DNA from: a virus
Reading direction: 5' to 3' (one strand)
Virus record (IMG/VR): IMGVR_UViG_3300045988_164095
Span: 1 to 19,044 of that record
DNA: 19,044 nt
A program made the translations under genes and the position numbers. How positions within the stretch are numbered: position 1 is the stretch's first letter; every line of letters starts with the position of its first letter. Of this stretch, positions 3,293-16,160 are shown in pieces. The notes under the pieces are model-generated. The model was not told the DNA's origin and made no database searches. It saw only the letters and a list, made by a program, of their open reading frames with translations.

Positions 3293-4360
3293 ATGATGTC
3301 AGCCATAGATCCTTTCATTCAATCTAACATCGTTCTTCCAACGGAAACAAAGAAAAGAGGTTCTGATATGATAATGTGAGGAGAAGATAATAAATATCCA
3401 TTATATCTATGGGATTTATATTTAAATGTTGCCACTCTCCAATCCATTATTAATGGTTCTGCTGACTTTATTGTTGGTAACGATGTTAAATGTAATGCTC
3501 CAGGATTTGAAGTAGTTGTAAACAAGAAAGGTGAAACAATAGTTGATATAATGAGAAAAATCACTATTGATAAGATGATATTCGGAGGTTATGCTATCCA
3601 AGTAATTAGAGATATGCTTGGAAGAGTTGCAGAGATCTATCATATTGATTTTATGAATGTAAGGTCAAGCGAAAAGAATGATATATTATATTATGCAACT
3701 GATTGGACAGCTTGGTCTGTAAAAGCTATAAAATATCCAAAATTTGGAGCTGGGGATGAAAATCCAGCTAGTATATTTTATAATAAAGGTTATATAACAA
3801 GAGGAGTATATCCTATTCCTGTTTATGGAGCTGCTATTTTATCTTGCGAAACTGAGAAAAATATTAATGAATTCCATTTAAATAACATCAATAATGGATT
3901 TATGGGTAATCTTATTATTAACTTTAATAATGGGGAACCTACAGATGAAATTAGAGAGGAGATTGAGAGGAATATTAATGAGAAGTTCTCTGGTTATCAG
4001 AATGCTGGCAGAATATTGATTTCATATAATGCAGATGAGGCAAATAAGACTACTATTGAAAGATTAGATTCTGATGATTTTGATGAGAAATATCAATCAT
4101 TATCTGAGAGAACCAGAGATCAAATATTCTGTGCCTTCAGAGCTAATCCTTCGTTGTTCGGTTTAAACTATAGCTCAGGATTTAATGAAAATGAGTTTAA
4201 TGAAGCATTTAAGCTATATAATCGTACTTTTGTACGCCCAATACAATCAGAAATTTGTGACTCATTTGATAAAATCTTCGGCATTAAGAATAGTATTACT
4301 ATTGAACCATTTAGTTTAACTCCAAAAGGAATGTCAGACAATGCAGAAAATGTTGAATAA
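3293..4360 (+). CDS. Portal protein (355 aa, one in-frame TGA at 3377)
   Basis: ATG at 3293 is in frame with ORF-track 3551..4360, and only a TGA (MIM-TGA-GEDNKYP) interrupts the frame. The length and sequence (YPLYLWDLY, SERTRDQIFCAFRANPSLFG) recall HK97/PBSX-type portals (Phage_portal family). Confidence 0.7.
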
Positions 4361-5003
4361 TTATACAGTGTACTGCCATAAGAATATAGCTGATAATAAA
4401 TTATATTTTGGAATAACATCACTTACTTTAAATAATAGATGGGGAACTAAAGGTCAAGGTTACAAGAATAATCTTTATTTTAGCAGAGCAATTAAAAAAT
4501 ATGGTTGAGATAATTTTGAGCATATTATAATTAGAGATAATCTTCCAGAAGCTTGTGCTAAGACTTTAGAAAAGATTCTGATTTATAAGTATAATACTAG
4601 AAATCCAAAATATGGGTATAATTTAACTGATGGAGGAGACGGTACTTGTGGATATTCTTTTTCACAAGATTATAAAGATAGTCTTAGAATTATAAGATCA
4701 GGAGAAAATAACTCATTTTATGGTAAACAGCATTCAGATGAAAGCAAGCGTAAAATGAGGGAGGCAAGATTAGGCAAAACTCCTTGAAATAAAGGTATGA
4801 AACTCTCAGATAAAGAAAAACAACTAATTTCAGAACGTCAGTGCAAAAAAGTATATAAGTATGATTTAGATGGTAATTTTATTTGTGAGTATAAATCAGC
4901 TAAGGAAGCTGGAGAGAAGAATAATGTAGATTCTTCTAGTATATCTAGATCTTGTAGAAAAAATAAACCCTGCAAAAATTATAAATATTATTATGGAATA
5001 TAG
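4350..5003 (+). CDS. GIY-YIG homing endonuclease (217 aa, in-frame TGA at 4506 and 4785)
   Basis: The N-terminus YTVYCHKN..NKLYFGIT is the GIY..YIG motif. It also has AIKKYG-TGA-DNFEH, YGYNLTDGGDG and a NUMOD-like GKTP-TGA-NKG, plus a C-terminal YDLDGNFICEYKSAKEA DNA-binding module. The gene overlaps the portal 3' end by 11 nt and the next gene's start by 11 nt. TAG stop. Confidence 0.85.
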
Positions 5004-6753: not shown

Positions 6754-6915
6754 ATGAAATATTGGATGAAATATTTAATAGCAATAGTAATTATAATCTT
6801 AGTCTTTTTAATGGTAAAAGTAATTCCATTTTGGATTACATTAGTACTCATAGCACTTGGTGCAGGATGTCATTTATTTTACCGTTATACTATGCTTAAA
6901 GATATTATTAAATAA
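6754..6915 (+). CDS. Holin candidate (53 aa, two predicted transmembrane helices)
   Basis: MKYWMKYLIAIVIIILVFLMVKVIPFWITLVLIALGAGCHLFYRYTMLKDIIK has two hydrophobic helices and a charged C-terminus. Its stop overlaps the endolysin ATG as TAATG. It is too short to appear in the ORF track. Confidence 0.5.
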   Translation: MKYWMKYLIAIVIIILVFLMVKVIPFWITLVLIALGAGCHLFYRYTMLKDIIK

Positions 6916-7367
6916 TGAAATATTTTACTATTAGTGAATTAACAAGATCTGATACAGCTTCTATTAAGAAGATAGATAATACTCCAAATAAAGAGATTAC
7001 TGAACACCTTATAGAGTTAGTCGAGAAACTTTTAGACCCAATCAGAGAGAGATGGGCAAAGTATTGTGATGACAATCAGCTTGGTAACGCAGGCATCAGG
7101 ATTTCCTCTGGTTTTAGAAATAAGGAGCTTAATAAAGCAGTAGGAGGATCTTCAACTTCTGCTCATTTAACAGGGTATGCAGCAGATATATCTCCAATTA
7201 ATGGTAATATGAAAGTATTCCAAAGTTGGATTGCTGAAGCTATTGAAGAATTTGATTTCGACCAGTTGATATATGAAAGGCCTAGGAATGGTATAGCAAG
7301 TTGAATACACTTGGGATTAAAGAATAAAGACGGGATGCAAAGACGACAGAAATTTACTATTATATAA
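6915..7367 (+). CDS. Peptidase M15 (VanY/M15A-like) peptidoglycan hydrolase, endolysin (150 aa, in-frame TGA at 7302)
   Basis: The motif SGFRNKELNKAVGGSSTSAHLTGYAADI matches the SxHxxGxAxD signature. The terminal His is recovered only by reading through TGA (GIAS-TGA-IHLGLK). TAA stop overlaps the next ATG. Confidence 0.8.
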
Positions 7368-7960
7368 TGTTTTACTATTGTTATAAAATAATTTTAACTG
7401 CAGGTACATTAAGAGGCAAGTATTATATTGGGAAAAGGATTTATAGAGGTAAAGACATAAATAAAGATCCATATAAAGGATCAGGAAGGATTATTACTAA
7501 TTATTACAAAAGATTCCCTAATGCATACCAAAAGATTATTTTGGCAACTTGCACTAATGCAGATGAATTATCTAAATTAGAATACAAACTAATTGGAGAT
7601 AAATGAGACACTGATCCTATGTGTTTAAATTTGAAACCTGGAGGAGAAGGAGGCAATTACGGAGTCAAATTTAATTCTGAATGAAAGAAGAAACTGTCTA
7701 ATTCTAATAAGGGAAAGAAACATAATTGCCCAGAATCTTGAAGAGTTAAAGTAGATGCTCATAACAAACAAAGATGTCGTAAAGTAGCTCAGTATGATTT
7801 AGATGGTAATTTTATTCAAGAGTATGAAAGTTGCACTGAAGCAGCCAAATCTGTAGGAACTGATAGAGGAGCTATTAGTAGAGTATGTGGTGGATTAGCA
7901 AATACAGCTAAAGGATTCAAGTGAAGATATGTTAATAAAAAAGAAAAGGAGGGCAAATAA
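7367..7960 (+). CDS. GIY-YIG homing endonuclease (197 aa, in-frame TGA at 7604, 7682, 7739 and 7922)
   Basis: N-terminal YCYKI...GKYYIGKR motif, then NLKPGGEGG and a C-terminal YDLDGNFIQEYESCTEAA...GFK-TGA-RYV module shared with 4350..5003. TAA stop lies inside a terminator hairpin. Confidence 0.8.
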
Positions 7961-7970
7961 CCCTCCTTTT
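7944..7970. terminator. Bidirectional intrinsic terminator between convergent gene blocks
   Basis: The 10-bp stem AAAAGGAGGG/CCCTCCTTTT has a 7-nt loop, with an A-tract upstream and a T-tract downstream. It sits between the plus-strand gene ending at 7960 and the minus-strand gene ending at 7974. Confidence 0.8.
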
Positions 7971-7973
7971 TGT

Positions 7974-8114
7974 TTATTCCATTATCTCAAATAATTTCTC
8001 ATCTTTAGGTATTAATTCTCCAGTTTGTAAATCTACTAAGAATTTACTATTTTCGGGAATTACATAAACGTAATTTACTCCATTTAAGCATAATTTATAT
8101 GTAAAGTACTTCAT
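7974..8114 (-). CDS. Hypothetical small protein (46 aa)
   Basis: MKYFTYKLCLNGVNYVYVIPENSKFLVDLQTGELIPKDEKLFEIME. Its ATG lies 2 nt from the stop of the upstream micro-ORF, and its TAA sits just before the terminator. It is below the ORF-track length cutoff. Confidence 0.4.
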   Translation of the reverse strand: MKYFTYKLCLNGVNYVYVIPENSKFLVDLQTGELIPKDEKLFEIME

Positions 8115-8115
8115 A

Positions 8116-8256
8116 TTAGTCAATATATGTTGCGTTAGGAATCTCTGGTTTGGGTGTTTCTTTTACTTCTTCCCAAACTAAACCTCTATTCTGGTTTTCT
8201 AGTTGAACTATTCTATATTCTAGTTCTTCAAGCTTTTTAAATAAATAATCATCCAT
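8116..8256 (-). CDS. Hypothetical small coiled-coil protein (46 aa)
   Basis: MDDYLFKKLEELEYRIVQLENQNRGLVWEEVKETPKPEIPNATYID, packed tightly with its neighbours. Confidence 0.4.
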   Translation of the reverse strand: MDDYLFKKLEELEYRIVQLENQNRGLVWEEVKETPKPEIPNATYID

Positions 8257-8258
8257 AA

Positions 8259-8420
8259 TTAATCAAATTTAGAAATAAACATATAATCTTTATCTTTTAA
8301 TACTTTATCTATAATATCACCAAATCTTTTAGTAGCCTCTTTACATTCGAGCATTCATTTATCCAATTCTTTAATATACTCTTCTGTTTGTTTAATTGTT
8401 TCTTTAGTATCACTTTCCAT
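8259..8420 (-). CDS. Hypothetical small protein (53 aa, one in-frame TGA at 8355..8357)
   Basis: MESDTKETIKQTEEYIKELDK-TGA-MLECKEATKRFGDIIDKVLKDKDYMFISKFD. It starts 19 nt downstream of the helicase stop. Confidence 0.35.
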
Positions 8421-8438
8421 ATCACAAATATAATATTT

Positions 8439-10160
8439 TTATTTATTAAATACAAATTTTTTATTAATAATTACATAACCTTCAGTTTGTTTACCATTTA
8501 CTCTTTTCTGGCATTTTTTAACTTCATAATATTTATCAATTTCTGTTGCTTTTGGAGTAATAGTAATATCACTAATTTCATAAGCTTCTTTAACAAACTT
8601 TTTAATATCAGCGTTAGAATACCACATTCCAAGAGTAATTGATTGATTTAACTTCTTAGCTGCTTTATTATCTGCACTTTTATTTGATTTCTTTAATAGA
8701 GCATCTTTAATATCCGAAATGCAATATTTCAAGCTTGCCATCTTTTCGAATCCTAATTTACTAATAGCTTCTGGTAACCAAGGATATTTAATAATAGCAT
8801 CATTTAAGAGTGGAGTATTCAGTTTAAATTTATTTTCCCATTCTGTTCTAACTTCTTTAATTAGTTCTTTAAATGGTTTATTATCAGATTCAAAATCAAT
8901 CTTAATAGAGTTGTCTTCACATTCTACTACTTTTTTAAATCCGTTCTTTATATATTCTTTATTAAGATTCGTTCTAATAGAATATAAACCTCTTGTCACT
9001 TTAAAGTTAAAAATATCTACCTTAGCCATATTTGGATCAAATGTAAATGTAAAATCATCATTTACTTGGATATAAGTATCAGATGTAAATTCTTTAAGTT
9101 TCTTTCTTGCAACTTCAGGCATTGCATTGTAAGCATCTACAGCAATCTTAGTTTCCTCAATATTCTGGATATTCTTCTTTTTAAAGTCTTCATAACTAAT
9201 ATCTGCATATCTTGTTGCTGAGTAAAGATGAGTTATCCAGTTTAAATATTTACTATTTCTAATTCTACCAGCAATCTGTTGAATAGAAGTTGAAATGTCA
9301 AGAAGAGTTTGTGCTTTTTGAGCATCACTTACTACTACAATTCTTCCATTTTCATCATAAATATCAGAACCTTCAAATACTGTAGAAGTTAATAAATTTA
9401 TTTTCTTAGGTTCATCTAATACTGTAGAATTATGAATTGATAATTTGGTTTTATTGTTTTTGGAATATATAACTCTGGTATTCTCTTCTGTAAGTTTAGC
9501 TTTCTGAATAAGATTCTTTATAAAGTCTACAGAATTTACAAATATATAAACATTACCTTCGACTTGATTATTAAGAACAGCATTAATTAATTTAATAGTT
9601 GAAGCTTCAACATTCTTACATTTAACGGCTTGTACCTTAGTTTCAATAACATCATCCCATTCTTGTTTTACTAATTCTAAATCTTTTAATTCATCTAATA
9701 CAAACTCTTCTTCAAGAGGAGTAGCAGTCATAAATGTAAAATCTTTAAATAATTTATAGTTCTCTAAAACAGGCTTAATAGCATCCTTTCTAAAGCTATA
9801 CTGATTAAATAGTATATGATATTCATCTACTAATAAACTATATTCTTTAGTATTAACTGCAGAAATAACTTTTGGAAGTGAGTTATATGTAACAATAATT
9901 TTAGGGCATTTAACACTATCTACGTAATCTTTAATCTCTTTAATAGTAACTCCAGCATAAACTCCAAATATCTTCTCAGTACGTCTTTCATTTGGATATT
10001 GTTGAAGTTTATTTTCAACTAAGCTAGTAAATGGAACACAAATAACATAAGGCTTATTACATTCAATTGCCATTGAAGTTCCTCCACATCCAACTTTTCC
10101 TTTATCAAATAAACAGTTAGTTGGCAACTCATTAATCAAATTGTTTAAATATGTTTTCAT
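8439..10160 (-). CDS. Superfamily-2 DExH-box helicase (573 aa)
   Basis: Motif I-like KVGCGGTS, motif II LLVDEYH, motif III FMTATP and motif VI QIAGRIRN. It has no in-frame TGA (five Trp, all TGG) and a TAA stop. Confidence 0.8.
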   Translation of the reverse strand: MKTYLNNLINELPTNCLFDKGKVGCGGTSMAIECNKPYVICVPFTSLVENKLQQYPNERRTEKIFGVYAGVTIKEIKDYVDSVKCPKIIVTYNSLPKVISAVNTKEYSLLVDEYHILFNQYSFRKDAIKPVLENYKLFKDFTFMTATPLEEEFVLDELKDLELVKQEWDDVIETKVQAVKCKNVEASTIKLINAVLNNQVEGNVYIFVNSVDFIKNLIQKAKLTEENTRVIYSKNNKTKLSIHNSTVLDEPKKINLLTSTVFEGSDIYDENGRIVVVSDAQKAQTLLDISTSIQQIAGRIRNSKYLNWITHLYSATRYADISYEDFKKKNIQNIEETKIAVDAYNAMPEVARKKLKEFTSDTYIQVNDDFTFTFDPNMAKVDIFNFKVTRGLYSIRTNLNKEYIKNGFKKVVECEDNSIKIDFESDNKPFKELIKEVRTEWENKFKLNTPLLNDAIIKYPWLPEAISKLGFEKMASLKYCISDIKDALLKKSNKSADNKAAKKLNQSITLGMWYSNADIKKFVKEAYEISDITITPKATEIDKYYEVKKCQKRVNGKQTEGYVIINKKFVFNK

Positions 10161-10190
10161 AATTTTAATAATTTAAATAGTTAAAGTTTT

Positions 10191-10240
10191 TGTCAATATT
10201 TTTATTTTCTTACTACTAAAAGTGAGTAAAAAACTTGACA
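10191..10240 (+). repeat. Copy 2 of the 50-bp element (invariant 20-mer at 10221..10240)
   Basis: TGTCAATATTTTTATTTTCTTACTACTAAAAGTGAGTAAAAAACTTGACA. It has the same plus-strand orientation as copies 1 and 3 although both flanking genes are on the minus strand. Confidence 0.9.
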
Positions 10241-10256
10241 GTAAGATTCAAAAAGT

Positions 10257-10275
10257 GGCAGGATTTTCACCTGCC
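10257..10275 (-). terminator. Terminator-like hairpin downstream of minus-strand ORF 10290..10445
   Basis: The stem GGCAGG/CCTGCC has a 7-nt loop. On the minus strand it is followed by ACTTTTTG, and on the plus strand it has no T-tail. Confidence 0.5.
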
Positions 10276-10289
10276 TAGAAGTAATAGAA

Positions 10290-10445
10290 TTACTTATTTT
10301 TACTAAAATAAGCTGCAATTGTAGGAGAGTTAGCTAATAAGTTAGCAAATTGTTCATCAGAACAAGTAATTGAATTCTCCATAGTGCTCTTAATTGTATT
10401 ATCTTCAATAATAATTGTTCCATTGTTTTTAATCGAATTTTTCAT
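10290..10445 (-). CDS. Hypothetical small protein (51 aa)
   Basis: MKNSIKNNGTIIIEDNTIKSTMENSITCSDEQFANLLANSPTIAAYFSKNK lies about 40 nt downstream of a consensus Bacteroides-type promoter and is followed by a hairpin. Confidence 0.45.
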   Translation of the reverse strand: MKNSIKNNGTIIIEDNTIKSTMENSITCSDEQFANLLANSPTIAAYFSKNK

Positions 10446-10486
10446 AGTCTTTAAAATTTTAATTATAATAATCTATTTTGATAGTA

Positions 10487-10518
10487 CAAATATACAACAT
10501 TTTTATTTAAAATCCAAA
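10487..10518 (-). promoter_or_regulatory. Bacteroides-type promoter (-33 TTTG, 20-nt spacer, -7 TATATTTG)
   Basis: The minus strand reads TTTG gattttaaataaaaatgttg TATATTTG tactat, upstream of the ATG at 10445. Confidence 0.6.
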
Positions 10519-10567
10519 TAATTCGGGTATTATTTTTAATAAAAAATTATTTTTTTTCTTTACACTA

Positions 10568-10598
10568 CAAATATAATAATAAATTTTTATTCTACAAA
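10568..10598 (-). promoter_or_regulatory. Second, tandem Bacteroides-type promoter (-33 TTTG, 19-nt spacer, -7 TATATTTG)
   Basis: The minus strand reads TTTG tagaataaaaatttattat TATATTTG tagtgt. Its -33 box lies inside the last codons of CDS 10587..11072. Confidence 0.5.
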
Positions 10599-11072
10599 AC
10601 TTTTCTTGATTTTTCTTACCCAAAGTTTTGTTAATTTTTTGCCATTCTCTTTTTCGTATCTTTGATTAGCATATTTTATTCAGTCTCAATTTAGTGCATT
10701 TAATTGAATTGCAGCTCTATTTAATGATACTCCAGATAAGCACAATTCTACTAATTTATCTATATTCTCATTATATCATTCTTTTTTGCTTTGTTTATTT
10801 ATTTTTATATTATTTGCACTCTTAAAATCTGCTAATAGCTCTACAATTAATTCATCTGGAAGTTTTAACCATTCTGAATTACTCTTAGTTTTATATGCTC
10901 TATATTTATCTCTATAATAATTTTCATCATCTCTATTTCCTTCTTTTGCTATAAAAAATTCTATCATCTCATTTGGAATAGTATTTTTATAAGCAGTTAG
11001 TCTGCCACTTATATTAGTAGTGTAACCAACTTTAATAAAATTCGTTTTAGTTAATTTAATTACGTAAATCAT
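10587..11072 (-). CDS. T5orf172 (GIY-YIG-like, MUG113) domain protein with C-terminal helix-turn-helix (161 aa, three in-frame TGA)
   Basis: The N-terminus IYVIKLTKTNFIKVGYTTNISGRLTAYK...SEWLKLP matches the T5orf172 pattern. The ORF-track stop at 10776..10778 is TGA. Read-through adds IDKLVELCLSGVSLNRAAIQLNALN-TGA-D-TGA-IKYANQRY... (HTH-like) up to TAA at 10587. Confidence 0.7.
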
Positions 11073-11148
11073 ATTGTTTTTATTAATATATAATAAAAAT
11101 ACAAATAGTAATATTTTTTTGAAAATAATAAAAATAATACCTAAAAAA

Positions 11149-11180
11149 TTTGGAAATTGAATAAAAATGTATTATCTTTG
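11149..11180 (+). promoter_or_regulatory. Bacteroides-type promoter (-33 TTTG, 20-nt spacer, -7 TATCTTTG)
   Basis: TTTG gaaattgaataaaaatgtat TATCTTTG tagtac lies in the divergent intergenic region, 45 nt upstream of the ATG at 11225. Confidence 0.6.
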
Positions 11181-11224
11181 TAGTACAATAATAAACAAGT
11201 ATTAACATATTAAATAATAAAATT

Positions 11225-11464
11225 ATGAAAAAAATAAATAAAATTTTAGTTGGTCTTTTAATTGCATCTTCAATTGTTGCAGGTTTTAGAGTAAATGAAG
11301 TCTATCAGGAAAGACAACATAAAACATTTGAATTAAGATTAGAAAGAGCAGAATTAAAACATAAATTAGATTCAGTAATGTGGGTTAATCCAGCAAGTGA
11401 AGAAGTATCTAATTTATATGAAGAATATTGTGATTTAACACTTAAAATTAATAATATAAAATAA
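11225..11464 (+). CDS. Small membrane-anchored protein (79 aa)
   Basis: It has an N-terminal hydrophobic segment ILVGLLIASSIVAGF, and its TAA overlaps the next ATG as TAATG. Confidence 0.55.
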   Translation: MKKINKILVGLLIASSIVAGFRVNEVYQERQHKTFELRLERAELKHKLDSVMWVNPASEEVSNLYEEYCDLTLKINNIK

Positions 11465-11901
11465 TGAAAACAGATATAAGAAGCTTAGTCTTTACAAAGA
11501 ATCTATTTAAAGAGAAATTTAATATAGATATAGAATGATGTAAAGACGATTACTCCAGATATGATGGAACATTTAATTGGAATGGAATTGATTATATAAT
11601 TGAAGTTAAAAGGAGAAGATTTAATTCTAATAAATATCCAACCACTATTATTAATAGGGATAAATTTGATATGCTATCAAGAAATAATTCTATATTAGTA
11701 ATAATATTTGATGATGGAGTATATATATTTAAAGATATAAAACAAGCCTTTATAAAGGATTCTATGAAATATGGTTGTTCTACAACAGATTTTGGAGGAA
11801 CTTATGGCTATTCATTAAAAACAGAGTTGTCTTTAAAGAAAGCCATTAAGATAGATGTAAATACAGAATTTAGTAATTATATAGCAAATGATAGCCTATA
11901 A
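11464..11901 (+). CDS. Putative PD-(D/E)XK-fold nuclease (145 aa, in-frame TGA at 11536)
   Basis: ATG at 11464 is in frame with ORF-track 11671..11901. The segment YDGTF...IDYIIEVKRR fits a D...(D/E)xK nuclease core. The functional call is tentative. Confidence 0.4.
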
Positions 11902-12382
11902 AAGAATACTTAATTTTGAAAACTACCAAATTGGAACTGATGGCTCAATATGAAGTTTAAGAGCATCAGTTCCAAAGAGGTTAAAACCTCAAGTAAAAAC
12001 TAATGGGTACTTTACAGTAACATTATATAATAAAAATTTGAAAAAGAAGTGTTATATACATAGATTAGTAGCTGAAACTTTTATATCTAATCCGAATAAC
12101 TATCCTTGTATAAATCATAAGGATGAAAATAAATCAAATAATAATGTAAGTAATTTAGAATGGTGTACTTATAATTATAATAATAATTATGGAACTCATA
12201 ATCTGCGAGCTGGATATAGTCATAAGAAACCAATACTGCAATTACTAAATGGAATAGTTATTAAAAGATGGGATTCAACAATAGATGCTGAGAGAGAACT
12301 AAATATACAATCTAGAAATATTGTAAAGGTTCTTAAAGGGCAGCGAAAAACAGCAGGAGGATATATGTGAACATATGAGTAA
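11888..12382 (+). CDS. HNH homing endonuclease with NUMOD4-like N-terminus (164 aa, in-frame TGA at 11951 and 12368)
   Basis: It has FENYQIGTDGSI-TGA-S (NUMOD4-like), HRLVAETFISNPNNYPCINHKDENKSNNNVSNLEW (HNH_3-like) and a C-terminal KGQRKTAGGYM-TGA-TYE. The true stop is TAA at 12380. Confidence 0.8.
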
Positions 12383-12683
12383 TAACGAAATTGTAGAAAA
12401 GTACTATCCATTTATTATGGAACTTAAGCAAAAATTTGGTGCAGATGATGACTGTGTTCAAATGATTTTTGTAGAAATACTAGAGTATTCAAATCCAAAA
12501 TTAAATCAGCTTGATAGCAAAAATGAATTGAAATTTTGGATTACAAGATTATTTAAGAATTATTGGTTTAGTAAAACAAGTAGATATTACTATACCTATA
12601 AGAAATATTATGAGATTGTTAAAGAACCACTTGAACAACAAAATGACGAATTGGAGGATTGATTAAATGAAACGGAAGATTAA
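12375..12683 (+). CDS. Sigma-70-family region-2-like protein (102 aa, in-frame TGA at 12660)
   Basis: ADDDCVQMIFVEILEY and FWITRLFKNYWFSKTSR resemble sigma regions 2.1 to 2.4 of ECF-type factors. No region 4 is present in this frame. Confidence 0.5.
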
Positions 12684-12912
12684 TATTGACGATTTACTTA
12701 CTGAGTATGAAATAGACTATAGTATGTTTACAAATATGGATGATAGACTATTAAGTATATATCCAAAATGACTTGAGCTTAATAAGGCAGATAAGACAGT
12801 AATCATATTATATGCTGAATATCACAGTTATAGAGAAGTGGGAAGAATATTAGGAATTAGTCATACTACAATTCAAAGATTTATTAAACAAATAAGAGAG
12901 AGATTATGTTAG
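12667..12912 (+). CDS. Sigma-70-family region-4-like HTH protein (81 aa, in-frame TGA at 12769)
   Basis: DKTVIILYAEYHSYREVGRILGISHTTIQRFIKQIRERL matches a region 4.2 helix-turn-helix. The gene starts inside the last 17 nt of the region-2 ORF in the +1 frame. TAG stop. Confidence 0.55.
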
Positions 12913-13235
12913 AATTATTTATAATAGCAGTAATAATAGTCTTTATAATTGATTTATCTGGGGCTTTGGATAGTTTTAAACATAGTATTTGAAAAAGACT
13001 ATTTAAAGGTATGCCTTATAAAGGAGATTGAAGACTAAAACCTTTAGATTGCAGTTTATGTATGACTTGGTGAATTGGATTAATATATATTCTTATTACA
13101 AGTCAATTTTCAATTTTAATGGTTGGATATATTGCACTATTAGCATTTATGACTCCAATTATTAAAGATATTATGATATTATTAAAAGATGCATCTACTA
13201 AGCTGATAGATGTTATATACAAACTTATTGATTAA
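12906..13235 (+). CDS. Membrane protein (109 aa, three in-frame TGA)
   Basis: This gene is absent from the ORF track. Hydrophobic segments are LELFIIAVIIVFII, WIGLIYILITSQFSILMVGYIALLAF. It contains LDCSLCMT-TGG-TGA-IG, with adjacent TGG and TGA codons. TAA at 13233. Confidence 0.55.
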
Positions 13236-16038: not shown

Positions 16039-16040
16039 AA

Positions 16041-16090
16041 TGTCAGTTTTTATTTATTTTAACTACTAAAAGTGAGTAAAAAACTTGACA
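16041..16090 (+). repeat. Copy 3 of the 50-bp element (invariant 20-mer at 16071..16090)
   Basis: TGTCAGTTTTTATTTATTTTAACTACTAAAAGTGAGTAAAAAACTTGACA. Confidence 0.9.
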
Positions 16091-16093
16091 CTT

Positions 16094-16118
16094 AAATAGG
16101 GAGTAAATCTCCCTATTT
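16094..16118 (+). terminator. Intrinsic-terminator-like hairpin
   Basis: The 10-bp stem AAATAGGGAG/CTCCCTATTT has a 5-nt loop and is followed by GTGTTT. Confidence 0.6.
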
Positions 16119-16160
16119 GTGTTTAGATACCAACCTATAAATTAATATATTTTAACAAAA

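Follow-up and report, generated by a model that had tools for sequence, protein, structure and literature searches.

A probable early control region and lysis-cassette end in a ~31-kb human gut phage that reads TGA as tryptophan and carries Bacteroidota-type signals

The window analysed here, by which we mean the whole 19,044-nt stretch of the viral record IMGVR_UViG_3300045988_164095 (IMG/VR), carries part of a phage genome; the region under study runs from 6,754 to 13,235 (Table 1). Read with translation table 4, in which TGA is a tryptophan codon, the window encodes tail-fibre-like proteins, a portal, a DUF6712 protein and then an M15 endolysin; these are followed by a leftward block with a 573-aa helicase-like protein, small open reading frames (ORFs) and a T5orf172 gene, and in the right-hand part by a rightward block of small genes and then TerS-like, TerL and large structural proteins. 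We think it probable, though well short of certain, that the study region combines the divergent early control region with the lysis-cassette end of a ~31-kb tailed phage that infects a Bacteroidota host and reads TGA as tryptophan.

Exact-protein look-ups place the window within a larger phage genome of about 30-33 kb. Look-ups of three window proteins gave 53, 206 and 1208 collection blocks, with contigs of 20-50 kb in nearly all cases (the 1208 blocks, those of the TerS-like protein, nearly always on ~30-kb contigs), and a composite assembled from the window and two overlapping loci measures 31,290 bp (~31.3 kb). Pfam and PHROGs annotation shows packaging, capsid, tail, lysis and replication-initiation modules all to be present; the domain hits of the phage proteins include no integrase, and a virulent lifestyle is probable. 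Assemblies of human gut samples have yielded the phage hundreds of times; IMG/VR contains 33 loci from close relatives, with a TerL identity of 80% or more, and the sequence can already be found in public catalogues. A megablast search with the full window found no match among 50,697 phage records; tblastn gave none for the major capsid protein (MCP) and, for TerL, only matches of less than 30% identity (Thermus, halovirus and jumbo phages) that are uninformative on the host.

Three lines of evidence bear on the meaning of TGA. Under table 11 the window splits into short ORFs, and those of 80 aa or more add up to 4315 aa; table 4 raises this sum to 6806 aa, gives an abutting, tiled gene map and returns TerL (415 aa), the portal and the endolysin to full length. 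Related contigs annotated with table 4 show the same genes. The TGA of the endolysin (7302-7304) aligns with a tryptophan that is invariant in four phage endolysins (Bacteroides phage BF10P2, crAss-like cr114_1, Moraxella Mcat5 and Achromobacter ART). Finally, across 19 strains an in-frame TGA is replaced by TGG in 65 alignment cells and TGG by TGA in 33, so that exchange between these two codons accounts for 98 of 145 variant cells; the others hold Tyr, Cys, Ser, Leu or Phe codons. Because table 4 restores the tiling, TGA aligns with an invariant tryptophan and exchange with TGG dominates strain polymorphism, we conclude that TGA is a sense codon for tryptophan. It is present in 22 of the 34 genes tabulated for the composite genome, promoter-proximal ones included, at sites that are fixed across strains; all 34 stop at TAA or TAG. 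Two other codes were rejected: table 25 (TGA as glycine), given the tryptophan column of the endolysin alignment and the complete lack of Gly codons among the strain variants, and table 15 (TAG as sense), given almost no gain in ORF length (4711 aa).

A sequence-only reading of this DNA had identified the endolysin as an M15 peptidoglycan hydrolase and had deduced a walled, Bacteroidota-like host; the first deduction is confirmed and the second is supported. The protein scores 53.4 bits against Pfam Peptidase_M15_3 (cutoff 23.2) and 2.8e-29 against a PHROG endolysin family, the SAHxxGxAxD and WxH columns (the H..D and W-x-H metal-site motifs) are conserved in the alignment, and its TGA is kept in 17 of 17 strains. 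Together with the holin-like gene, an M15 endolysin implies a peptidoglycan-walled host, and Mollicutes are thereby ruled out.

The host is narrowed further by the promoters. Four sites in the window match TTTG-N19/20-TAnnTTTG, where the sequence-only reading had counted three. TTTG at -33 and TAnnTTTG at -7, some 19-21 nt apart, are reportedly the consensus of Bacteroidota primary-sigma promoters (Bayley et al. 2000; Chen et al. 2007). The composite genome has no match besides these four, and all lie within the 2.8-kb divergent region 8425-11180, intergenic or at gene ends; they are oriented towards genes, with start codons at a distance of 30-45 nt. This is more than expected by chance, as comparison with shuffled sequence, the check that had been proposed, makes clear: 0.39 matches are expected in the whole window (0 of 200 shuffles reach four), 0.04 in intergenic DNA only (0 of 2000 dinucleotide shuffles reach four) and 0.64 when 200-nt blocks are shuffled (maximum four over 200 shuffles). 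TAnnTTTG by itself is not enriched (33 observed, 31 expected), and the signal therefore resides in the bipartite arrangement. Canonical sigma-70 sites (TTGACA/TATAAT) are depleted (29 versus 50.8). Among related strains there are ~20 spacer variants and both boxes are kept in all of them; boxes retained while spacers drift is the pattern predicted by selection on a -33/-7 promoter. In control genomes the Bacteroides fragilis phage BF10P2 has six matches against 0.5 expected and a Mycoplasma phage one against 0.4. The four sites thus fit promoters of the Bacteroidota primary sigma factor, as far as sequence can indicate promoter function.

Translation starts tell a similar story. A Shine-Dalgarno (SD) core of at least 4 nt precedes six of the 34 genes, against 17% of internal ATGs, which amounts to no enrichment and agrees with the near-absence of such sequences reported earlier; A occupies position -3 in 27 of the 34 (79%). 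Lack of SD sequences combined with A at -3 is typical of Bacteroidota and at odds with Bacillota. Relatives of the portal among the 50,697 phage records are confined to Nonlabens phages, one Bacteroides phage and one unannotated faecal contig, and the best E-values of the endolysin belong to Bacteroides phages, although crAss-like phages and phages of Proteobacteria match too. The BACON-like repeats ascribed to the large structural protein dwindle to a weak likeness, in each of two structural proteins, to a single domain: BACON is the top Pfam match of the 726-aa protein (16 bits, E=0.012, below the 25-bit cutoff) and the viral BACON_2 that of the C-terminus of the 1119-aa protein encoded by the next gene, mostly outside the window (19.4 bits, E=0.001, cutoff 25).

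A further link to the host comes from two scaffolds of 198,436 bp (L025; ENA ZHON19-1 scaffold_31) and 193,455 bp (L026; LIJU14-1 scaffold_39), in which the phage is joined to foreign flanking DNA. The flank is a ~164-171-kb (~168 kb) TGA-recoded phage, here called phage B, whose TerL and portal are crAss-type and one of whose proteins is labelled 'Crassvirales sp.' by NCBI (the sequences concerned are L025, L026, L027 and L030-L032). The join falls inside a tail-fibre segment of 2260 bp that is 98.8% identical between phage B and one strain of our phage (L027), and in one scaffold a 100-N gap adjoins it. Because of these three features we take the scaffolds to be chimeras of two phages; a prophage in a host chromosome was rejected on the same grounds, the flank being phage B and the join lying in a shared tail-fibre repeat. 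The shared segment indicates that a tail-fibre module, predicted to serve host recognition, was exchanged between two unrelated recoded phages; they would have recombined recently, and would thus meet in the same cells. The strain represented by the window lacks the shared fibre segment and has a 36-bp match only. All cultured Crassvirales infect Bacteroidota (host list), which suggests a shared Bacteroidota host for the two phages. Taken together, the promoters, the lack of SD sequences, the relatives of portal and endolysin, and the tail-fibre exchange with a Crassvirales phage argue for a Bacteroidota-type host.

TGA is used unevenly. Across the composite genome 49 TGA and 66 TGG codons make TGA 43% of 115 tryptophan codons, whereas other A/G-ending codon pairs are 70-96% A-ending. 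In the late genes of phage B TGA provides 76% of tryptophan codons, equal to that phage's other A/G pairs (Fisher p=4e-7 for the difference between the two phages), and in phiMFV1, a Mycoplasma phage whose host natively uses table 4, it provides 87%. The capsid module (protease, scaffold, MCP and a 174-aa protein) has no TGA and ten TGG, and across five strains differing by 15% it has one TGA and 48 TGG; the 573-aa gene has five TGG and no TGA in 18 strains. Capsid and helicase genes differ from the remaining genes in TGA share (p=1.3e-4). The pattern is neither 'late genes only' nor uniform: as the sequence-only reading maintained, TGA extends beyond late structural genes, with fixed TGAs in the rightward early operon, while the TGA-free capsid genes are presumably the most highly expressed of the late genes. 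The related statement that promoter-proximal genes already need TGA holds for the rightward arm; the leftward arm (the 51-aa and 573-aa genes) is TGA-free.

Distant TerL relatives in IMG/VR (L066, L067 and L068; 32-43% identical, the nearer ones 42-43%; G+C higher, at 34-50%) have no in-frame TGA in TerL, and because of this the recoding appears to be derived within a lineage of ~28% G+C. The under-use of TGA relative to the controls, the TGA-free modules and the TGA-free TerL of the distant relatives together suggest that TGA is a derived codon that comes at a cost, and not part of a host-wide code. The Bacteroidota-type signals, the under-use and the TGA-free modules may indicate, indirectly, a host that uses the standard code. 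The code is therefore probably phage-specific, as had been proposed, but the phage encodes no tRNA with which it could switch the code. A suppressor tRNA-Trp(UCA) gene near a host-type promoter, which had been suggested as a place to look, does not exist in this phage: none of the sequences that cover the genome has a tRNA according to ARAGORN, nor does Rfam find one at E<=1 or at the gathering score, and a non-canonical tRNA was likewise rejected given the lack of any Rfam match at E<=1 across the genome. Neither a release factor nor a tRNA synthetase is found among the Pfam and PHROG annotations or the gene tables. The decoder must then come from outside the recognisable phage genes, and UGA decoding is probably supplied in trans and limiting.

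The genes of the rightward operon overlap or abut, and no terminator is predicted in 11225-13235. The TGAs said to lie in the operon behind the promoter at 11149 were all located, in the 145-aa, HNH, 102-aa, 81-aa and membrane-protein ORFs, and almost every one of them is fixed among the strains that span it, which number 13-19; codon 161 of the HNH gene supplies the W of a conserved GGYMW motif. The label of nuclease given to the 145-aa ORF finds no confirmation: neither Pfam, PHROGs nor a PDB sequence search supports it, and a D-x12-E-x-K motif is seen by eye only.

The two ORFs that follow the HNH gene were both claimed as sigma factors. For the 81-aa ORF this stands by a narrow margin (Pfam Sigma70_r4_2 26.5 bits, cutoff 25.7), although because HTH_50 scores higher (31.9 bits) the type of its helix-turn-helix (HTH) is ambiguous. 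For the 102-aa ORF the evidence consists of remote homology and a fold match. Its AlphaFold model has a predicted local distance difference test (pLDDT) score of 80, and above 94 for most of residues 1-60; in BFVD the model matches phage proteins of 160-180 aa with probability 0.85-1.0 and template-modelling (TM) scores of 0.55-0.66, three of them named sigma-70 region 2, RpoE or sigma-70 family. A profile search of 1.84 billion proteins returned 365 relatives, and among 45 sampled remote homologues Sigma70_r2 (in three) and Sigma70_r4_2 (in two) are the leading families; a collinear hhalign alignment to an E. coli RpoE sequence entered by hand gave E=0.018. In two relatives, P0091 (156 aa) and P0221 (179 aa), counterparts of the two ORFs make up one protein in this order, the 81-aa ORF matching its C-terminal part. 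In all strains of our phage the two are separate and overlap in different frames. A programmed frameshift fusing them is not supported: the second ATG is immediately preceded, in its own frame, by TAA, and no evident slippery site is seen in the 17-nt overlap. We conclude with moderate confidence that the pair is a split, very divergent sigma-like factor. Two-piece sigma factors are known in T4 gp55 with gp33 and in Bacillus subtilis SigO-RsoA. There too region-2-like and region-4-like functions reside on two small polypeptides encoded side by side; there is, however, no sequence relationship, and here the halves are those of a protein found fused in P0091 and P0221.

The two halves would depend differently on the code. 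Under the standard code the 102-aa protein loses its last seven residues only, and the HTH half halts at 34 aa: its TGA at codon 35 is fixed in 17 of 17 strains and precedes the HTH, just as had been read from the letters. A checkpoint on sigma-factor synthesis is compatible with this sequence, in that the HTH half would need TGA decoding, whereas the N-terminal half would lack little if TGA were not decoded. The 81-aa ORF has its ATG 4 nt downstream of the TGA in the 102-aa ORF, a codon that is TGG in one strain; the standard code would make this boundary an ordinary stop-start junction. SD cores of 5 nt or longer precede just three genes, these two ORFs among them (AGGAGG, GGAGG); for both, the core lies inside the upstream coding sequence.

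A possible target for such a factor is a repeated element of ~50 nt, TGTCA(G/A)-N17-TAC(T/A)(T/A)(T/A)...GAGTAAAAAACTTGACA, also written TGTCA(G/A)-N17-TAC(T/A)(T/A)(T/A)..(G/T)TGAGTAAAAAACTTGACA, whose ends are inverted repeats and which is followed by a GC hairpin and a T-run. All strains conserve the element, and each boundary of a late module has a copy. It might act as a promoter specific to the phage, as a terminator or processing unit, or as a site where a protein binds, and it could be what the sigma-like pair recognises.

From these observations the following scheme may be drawn. Host RNA polymerase carrying the Bacteroidota primary sigma factor would start at the four promoters between 8425 and 11180, and translation would begin without SD pairing, as in Bacteroidota. 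The leftward unit, encoding the 51-aa protein and the 573-aa helicase-like protein, could be produced at once since it is free of TGA. The rightward operon has a single TGA-free gene, its first; to complete the 145-aa protein, the HTH half and the membrane protein, UGA would have to be read as tryptophan, by a decoder that might be supplied by the host, by a co-infecting recoded phage or by an unrecognised phage protein. If decoding is costly or limiting, TGA would be under-used, and neither the capsid module nor the helicase gene would carry it. The timing of expression in this scheme, and the role of the sigma-like pair as a checkpoint, are conjectural. A stronger version has the tRNA-less phage make a standard-code Bacteroidota cell read UGA as tryptophan, by a protein or through the suppressor of a co-infecting crAss-like phage, and use this as a gate; we regard it as speculative and rather improbable. 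Possible protein routes are an inhibitor of release factor 2 (RF2), or an enzyme that retargets the anticodon of host tRNA-Trp, encoded by TGA-free early ORFs. As TGA precedes the HTH, transcription from the four repeated elements could then start only once UGA decoding had been established.

Several observations weigh against our overall interpretation. Without a phage tRNA, and with TGAs fixed in promoter-proximal genes, a host that reads UGA would be the simplest explanation; phage B, unrelated but probably of the same host, is also TGA-recoded, as might follow from some property of the host itself. With ten TGAs in the 1119-aa protein, decoding must be efficient, and natural read-through cannot explain it. 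Promoter function and expression timing are read from sequence alone. The assignment of the pair as sigma-like is remote: the 102-aa ORF has no Pfam match, nor does its close family, and comparisons with PDB by sequence, profile and fold were all negative. Finally, a TerL scan of 185,579 GTDB species representatives returned no prophage or binned relative, and the host species was not found.

The first alternative, then, is a host that itself reads UGA as tryptophan, through native use of table 4 or a resident suppressor, in which case there is neither switch nor checkpoint. It would account for a ~31-kb genome that has no decoding gene, for fixed TGAs in most genes, and for an unrelated crAss-like phage that shares a tail-fibre segment and uses TGA at neutral frequency; it is also the case in the literature that table-4 phages from cultured hosts mostly infect Mycoplasma or Spiroplasma. 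Yet a native code should not leave TGA at half the share seen in the Mycoplasma phage and below every other codon pair, nor exclude it, in strain after strain, from the capsid module and from the 573-aa early gene. The endolysin and holin-like gene exclude Mollicutes, and promoters, translation starts and the relatives of portal and endolysin indicate Bacteroidota. Some opal-recoded zeta crAss-like phages, moreover, carry their own Sup-TCA tRNA, which suggests that their hosts supply none. We know of no table-4 lineage in Bacteroidota. On balance a UGA-reading host seems unlikely.

A second alternative places the suppressor tRNA in a co-infecting or resident recoded phage such as phage B, so that the TGA genes are expressed only in cells carrying the helper. 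The near-identical tail-fibre segment in L027 implies that the two phages met in one cell, the two co-assemble into chimeric scaffolds in two samples, the Sup-TCA tRNAs of some zeta crAss-like phages show where a suppressor might come from, and TGA is avoided in just those genes needed most abundantly. Dependence of this kind is nevertheless hard to reconcile with a phage that has a complete set of modules and that occurs so often, nearly always as a ~30-kb contig of its own; no suppressor tRNA is present in the ~23-33 kb of phage B examined, and the strain in the window lacks the shared fibre segment. We consider a helper quite improbable. That the TTTG...TAnnTTTG sites are instead phage-specific regulatory or chance AT-rich repeats in a host outside Bacteroidota draws on the unenriched -7 box, the ~21-26% GC of early intergenic DNA, the block shuffles that reach four, and CRISPR-based predictions of Holdemanella or Faecalibacillus for some opal-recoded zeta crAss-like phages (literature), but is made very improbable by the dinucleotide shuffles, the placement of the sites, their invariant boxes, the same enrichment in a Bacteroides phage, portal and endolysin relatives in Bacteroidota phages, and an absence of SD sequences that is incompatible with Bacillota and its SD usage.

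Recoded phages of the gut whose Bacteroidota or Firmicutes hosts use the standard code are an established class, which includes small and table-4 members (Borges et al. 2021/2022; Cook et al. 2024); the small clades Garnet, Amethyst and Topaz of Borges et al. measure 22-34 kb, and a suppressor tRNA is detectable in only 15-35% of table-4 phages (35% and 15% in two studies). The present phage fits this class. The likeness extends to TGA read as tryptophan, an animal or human gut source, standard-code relatives and the lack of a suppressor tRNA in most table-4 members, and probably to a predicted Bacteroidota or Firmicutes host with the standard code. It differs in that the capsid module (0 of 10 tryptophan codons) and the holin-like gene are TGA-free and a promoter-proximal regulatory operon is recoded, and in having no phage-encoded code-change gene, a feature that is frequent in the class but not universal. 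A concentration of recoded codons in late structural and lysis genes, with early genes left in the standard code, is expected of the class and is not seen here. Lysis genes of other recoded phages are reported to be heavily recoded; here the holin-like ORF has no TGA.

Opal-recoded zeta crAss-like phages (Lera, ct1yV3; Crassvirales) share with this phage TGA as tryptophan, the human gut and probably Bacteroidota hosts, but are 155-190 kb in size and have 20-30 tRNAs, often Sup-TCA, and their own RNA polymerase, in contrast to 31 kb and no tRNA; phage B, which is of this kind, differs in its higher share of TGA. Phages of native table-4 hosts (Mycoplasma, Spiroplasma; phiMFV1) resemble it in genome-wide TGA, in needing no suppressor tRNA and in low G+C. 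In phiMFV1, however, the share of TGA matches that of other A-ending codons, whereas here whole modules are TGA-free, and a peptidoglycan hydrolase and Bacteroidota-type promoters set our phage apart. What is unusual is the combination of a capsid module and a holin-like gene that are free of TGA, an early arm that also lacks it, and a regulatory early operon in which TGAs are fixed; so too are the lack of any decoding gene and the link, by recombination, with a crAss-like phage that is itself recoded.

Since the majority of predicted table-4 phages in the gut are without a suppressor tRNA, two questions are how they decode TGA and whether recoding really times lysis. At ~31 kb, very common and devoid of tRNA, with contrasting early arms, a TGA-free capsid module and a split sigma-like factor, the present phage offers a compact test case. 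Its layout departs from a simple rule that late genes are recoded and suggests that decoding capacity is limiting, and the tail-fibre exchange points to a shared Bacteroidota host in which questions of decoding and timing could be addressed.

Table 1. Predicted genes and signals of the study region, with the copies of the repeated element in and beyond the window
Feature	Position	Strand	Remarks
Transmembrane holin-like ORF, 53 aa	6754..6914	+	2 TGG, 0 TGA; directly upstream of endolysin; also called in related contigs
Peptidase M15_3 endolysin, 150 aa	6915..7367	+	One TGA (codon 130), within conserved W-x-H motif
GIY-YIG/NUMOD1 homing endonuclease, 197 aa	7367..7960	+	4 TGA, 0 TGG; absent or truncated in some strains
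Bidirectional intrinsic terminator (predicted)	7943..7971	.	Strong 11-bp hairpin, T-runs on both sides; between convergent lysis and leftward units
Three small leftward ORFs	7974..8420	-	53 aa (8420-8259), 46 aa (8256-8116), 49 aa (8123-7974); also in related contigs
Bacteroidota-type promoter (predicted), TTTG-N20-TATATTTG	8425..8456	-	-7 box ends 4 nt before ATG at 8420
SF2 (superfamily 2) helicase-like protein, 573 aa, DEYH box	8439..10160	-	Weak Pfam Helicase_C_2; homologue annotated DEAD-like helicase
Repeat copy, TGTCAA-N17-TACTAA..GTGAGTAAAAAACTTGACA and GC hairpin (10257-10275)	10190..10277	+	Hairpin scores as terminator on - strand
ORF, 51 aa	10290..10445	-	TGA-free; first gene of leftward early unit (predicted)
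Bacteroidota-type promoter (predicted), TTTG-N20-TATATTTG	10487..10518	-	Predicted to serve 51-aa and 573-aa unit
Bacteroidota-type promoter (predicted), TTTG-N19-TATATTTG	10568..10598	-	In tandem with 10487-10518; overlaps 3' end of T5orf172 gene
T5orf172/MUG113 (GIY-YIG-like) gene, 161 aa	10587..11072	-	3 TGA; absent from several strains
Bacteroidota-type promoter (predicted), TTTG-N20-TATCTTTG	11149..11180	+	Rightward operon; 44 nt upstream of ATG at 11225
Protein with N-terminal membrane anchor, 79 aa	11225..11464	+	TGA-free; first operon gene
Protein of 145 aa, function not assigned	11464..11901	+	TGA codon 25 (11536-11538), fixed in 19/19 strains
HNH/NUMOD homing endonuclease, 164 aa	11888..12382	+	TGA codons 22 and 161; Pfam, PHROGs
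Helical protein, 102 aa, putative sigma region-2-like N-terminal half	12375..12683	+	TGA codon 96 (12660-12662)
HTH protein, 81 aa, putative sigma region-4-like C-terminal half	12667..12912	+	TGA codon 35 (12769-12771), before HTH (residues 37-80)
Membrane protein, 109 aa	12906..13235	+	TGA codons 29, 42 and 56
Repeat copies in window	~2737-2815, ~10190-10277, ~16040-16120	+	Three copies
Repeat, fourth copy outside window	L012 ~2250		Upstream of protease/scaffold/MCP module

Within the leftward unit the 573-aa protein is a candidate replication protein; a comparison with PDB gave no match. The first of the three small ORFs downstream of it (8420-8259) has one TGA, at codon 22. The promoter at 8425-8456 overlaps the stop codon of the 573-aa gene and, because its -7 box ends so close to the ATG, the mRNA that starts there may be leaderless.

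Four genes vary by presence or absence among strains that are otherwise 95-99% identical: two GIY-YIG/NUMOD homing endonucleases (4341-5003 and 7367-7960), the T5orf172 gene (10587-11072) and the HNH homing endonuclease (11888-12382). Since it is missing from several strains, the T5orf172 gene is probably mobile. The homing endonucleases are rich in TGA (11 of 16 tryptophan codons), and further copies are found at other sites in other strains. Three tail-fibre-like proteins, encoded at 218-868, at 1765-2736 and, outside the window, at L011 5040-5993, share a C-terminal ...LTDEQKSLIASKNW... module; the last of these has a weak match to the BspA-type LRR_5 family (E=2.9e-4).

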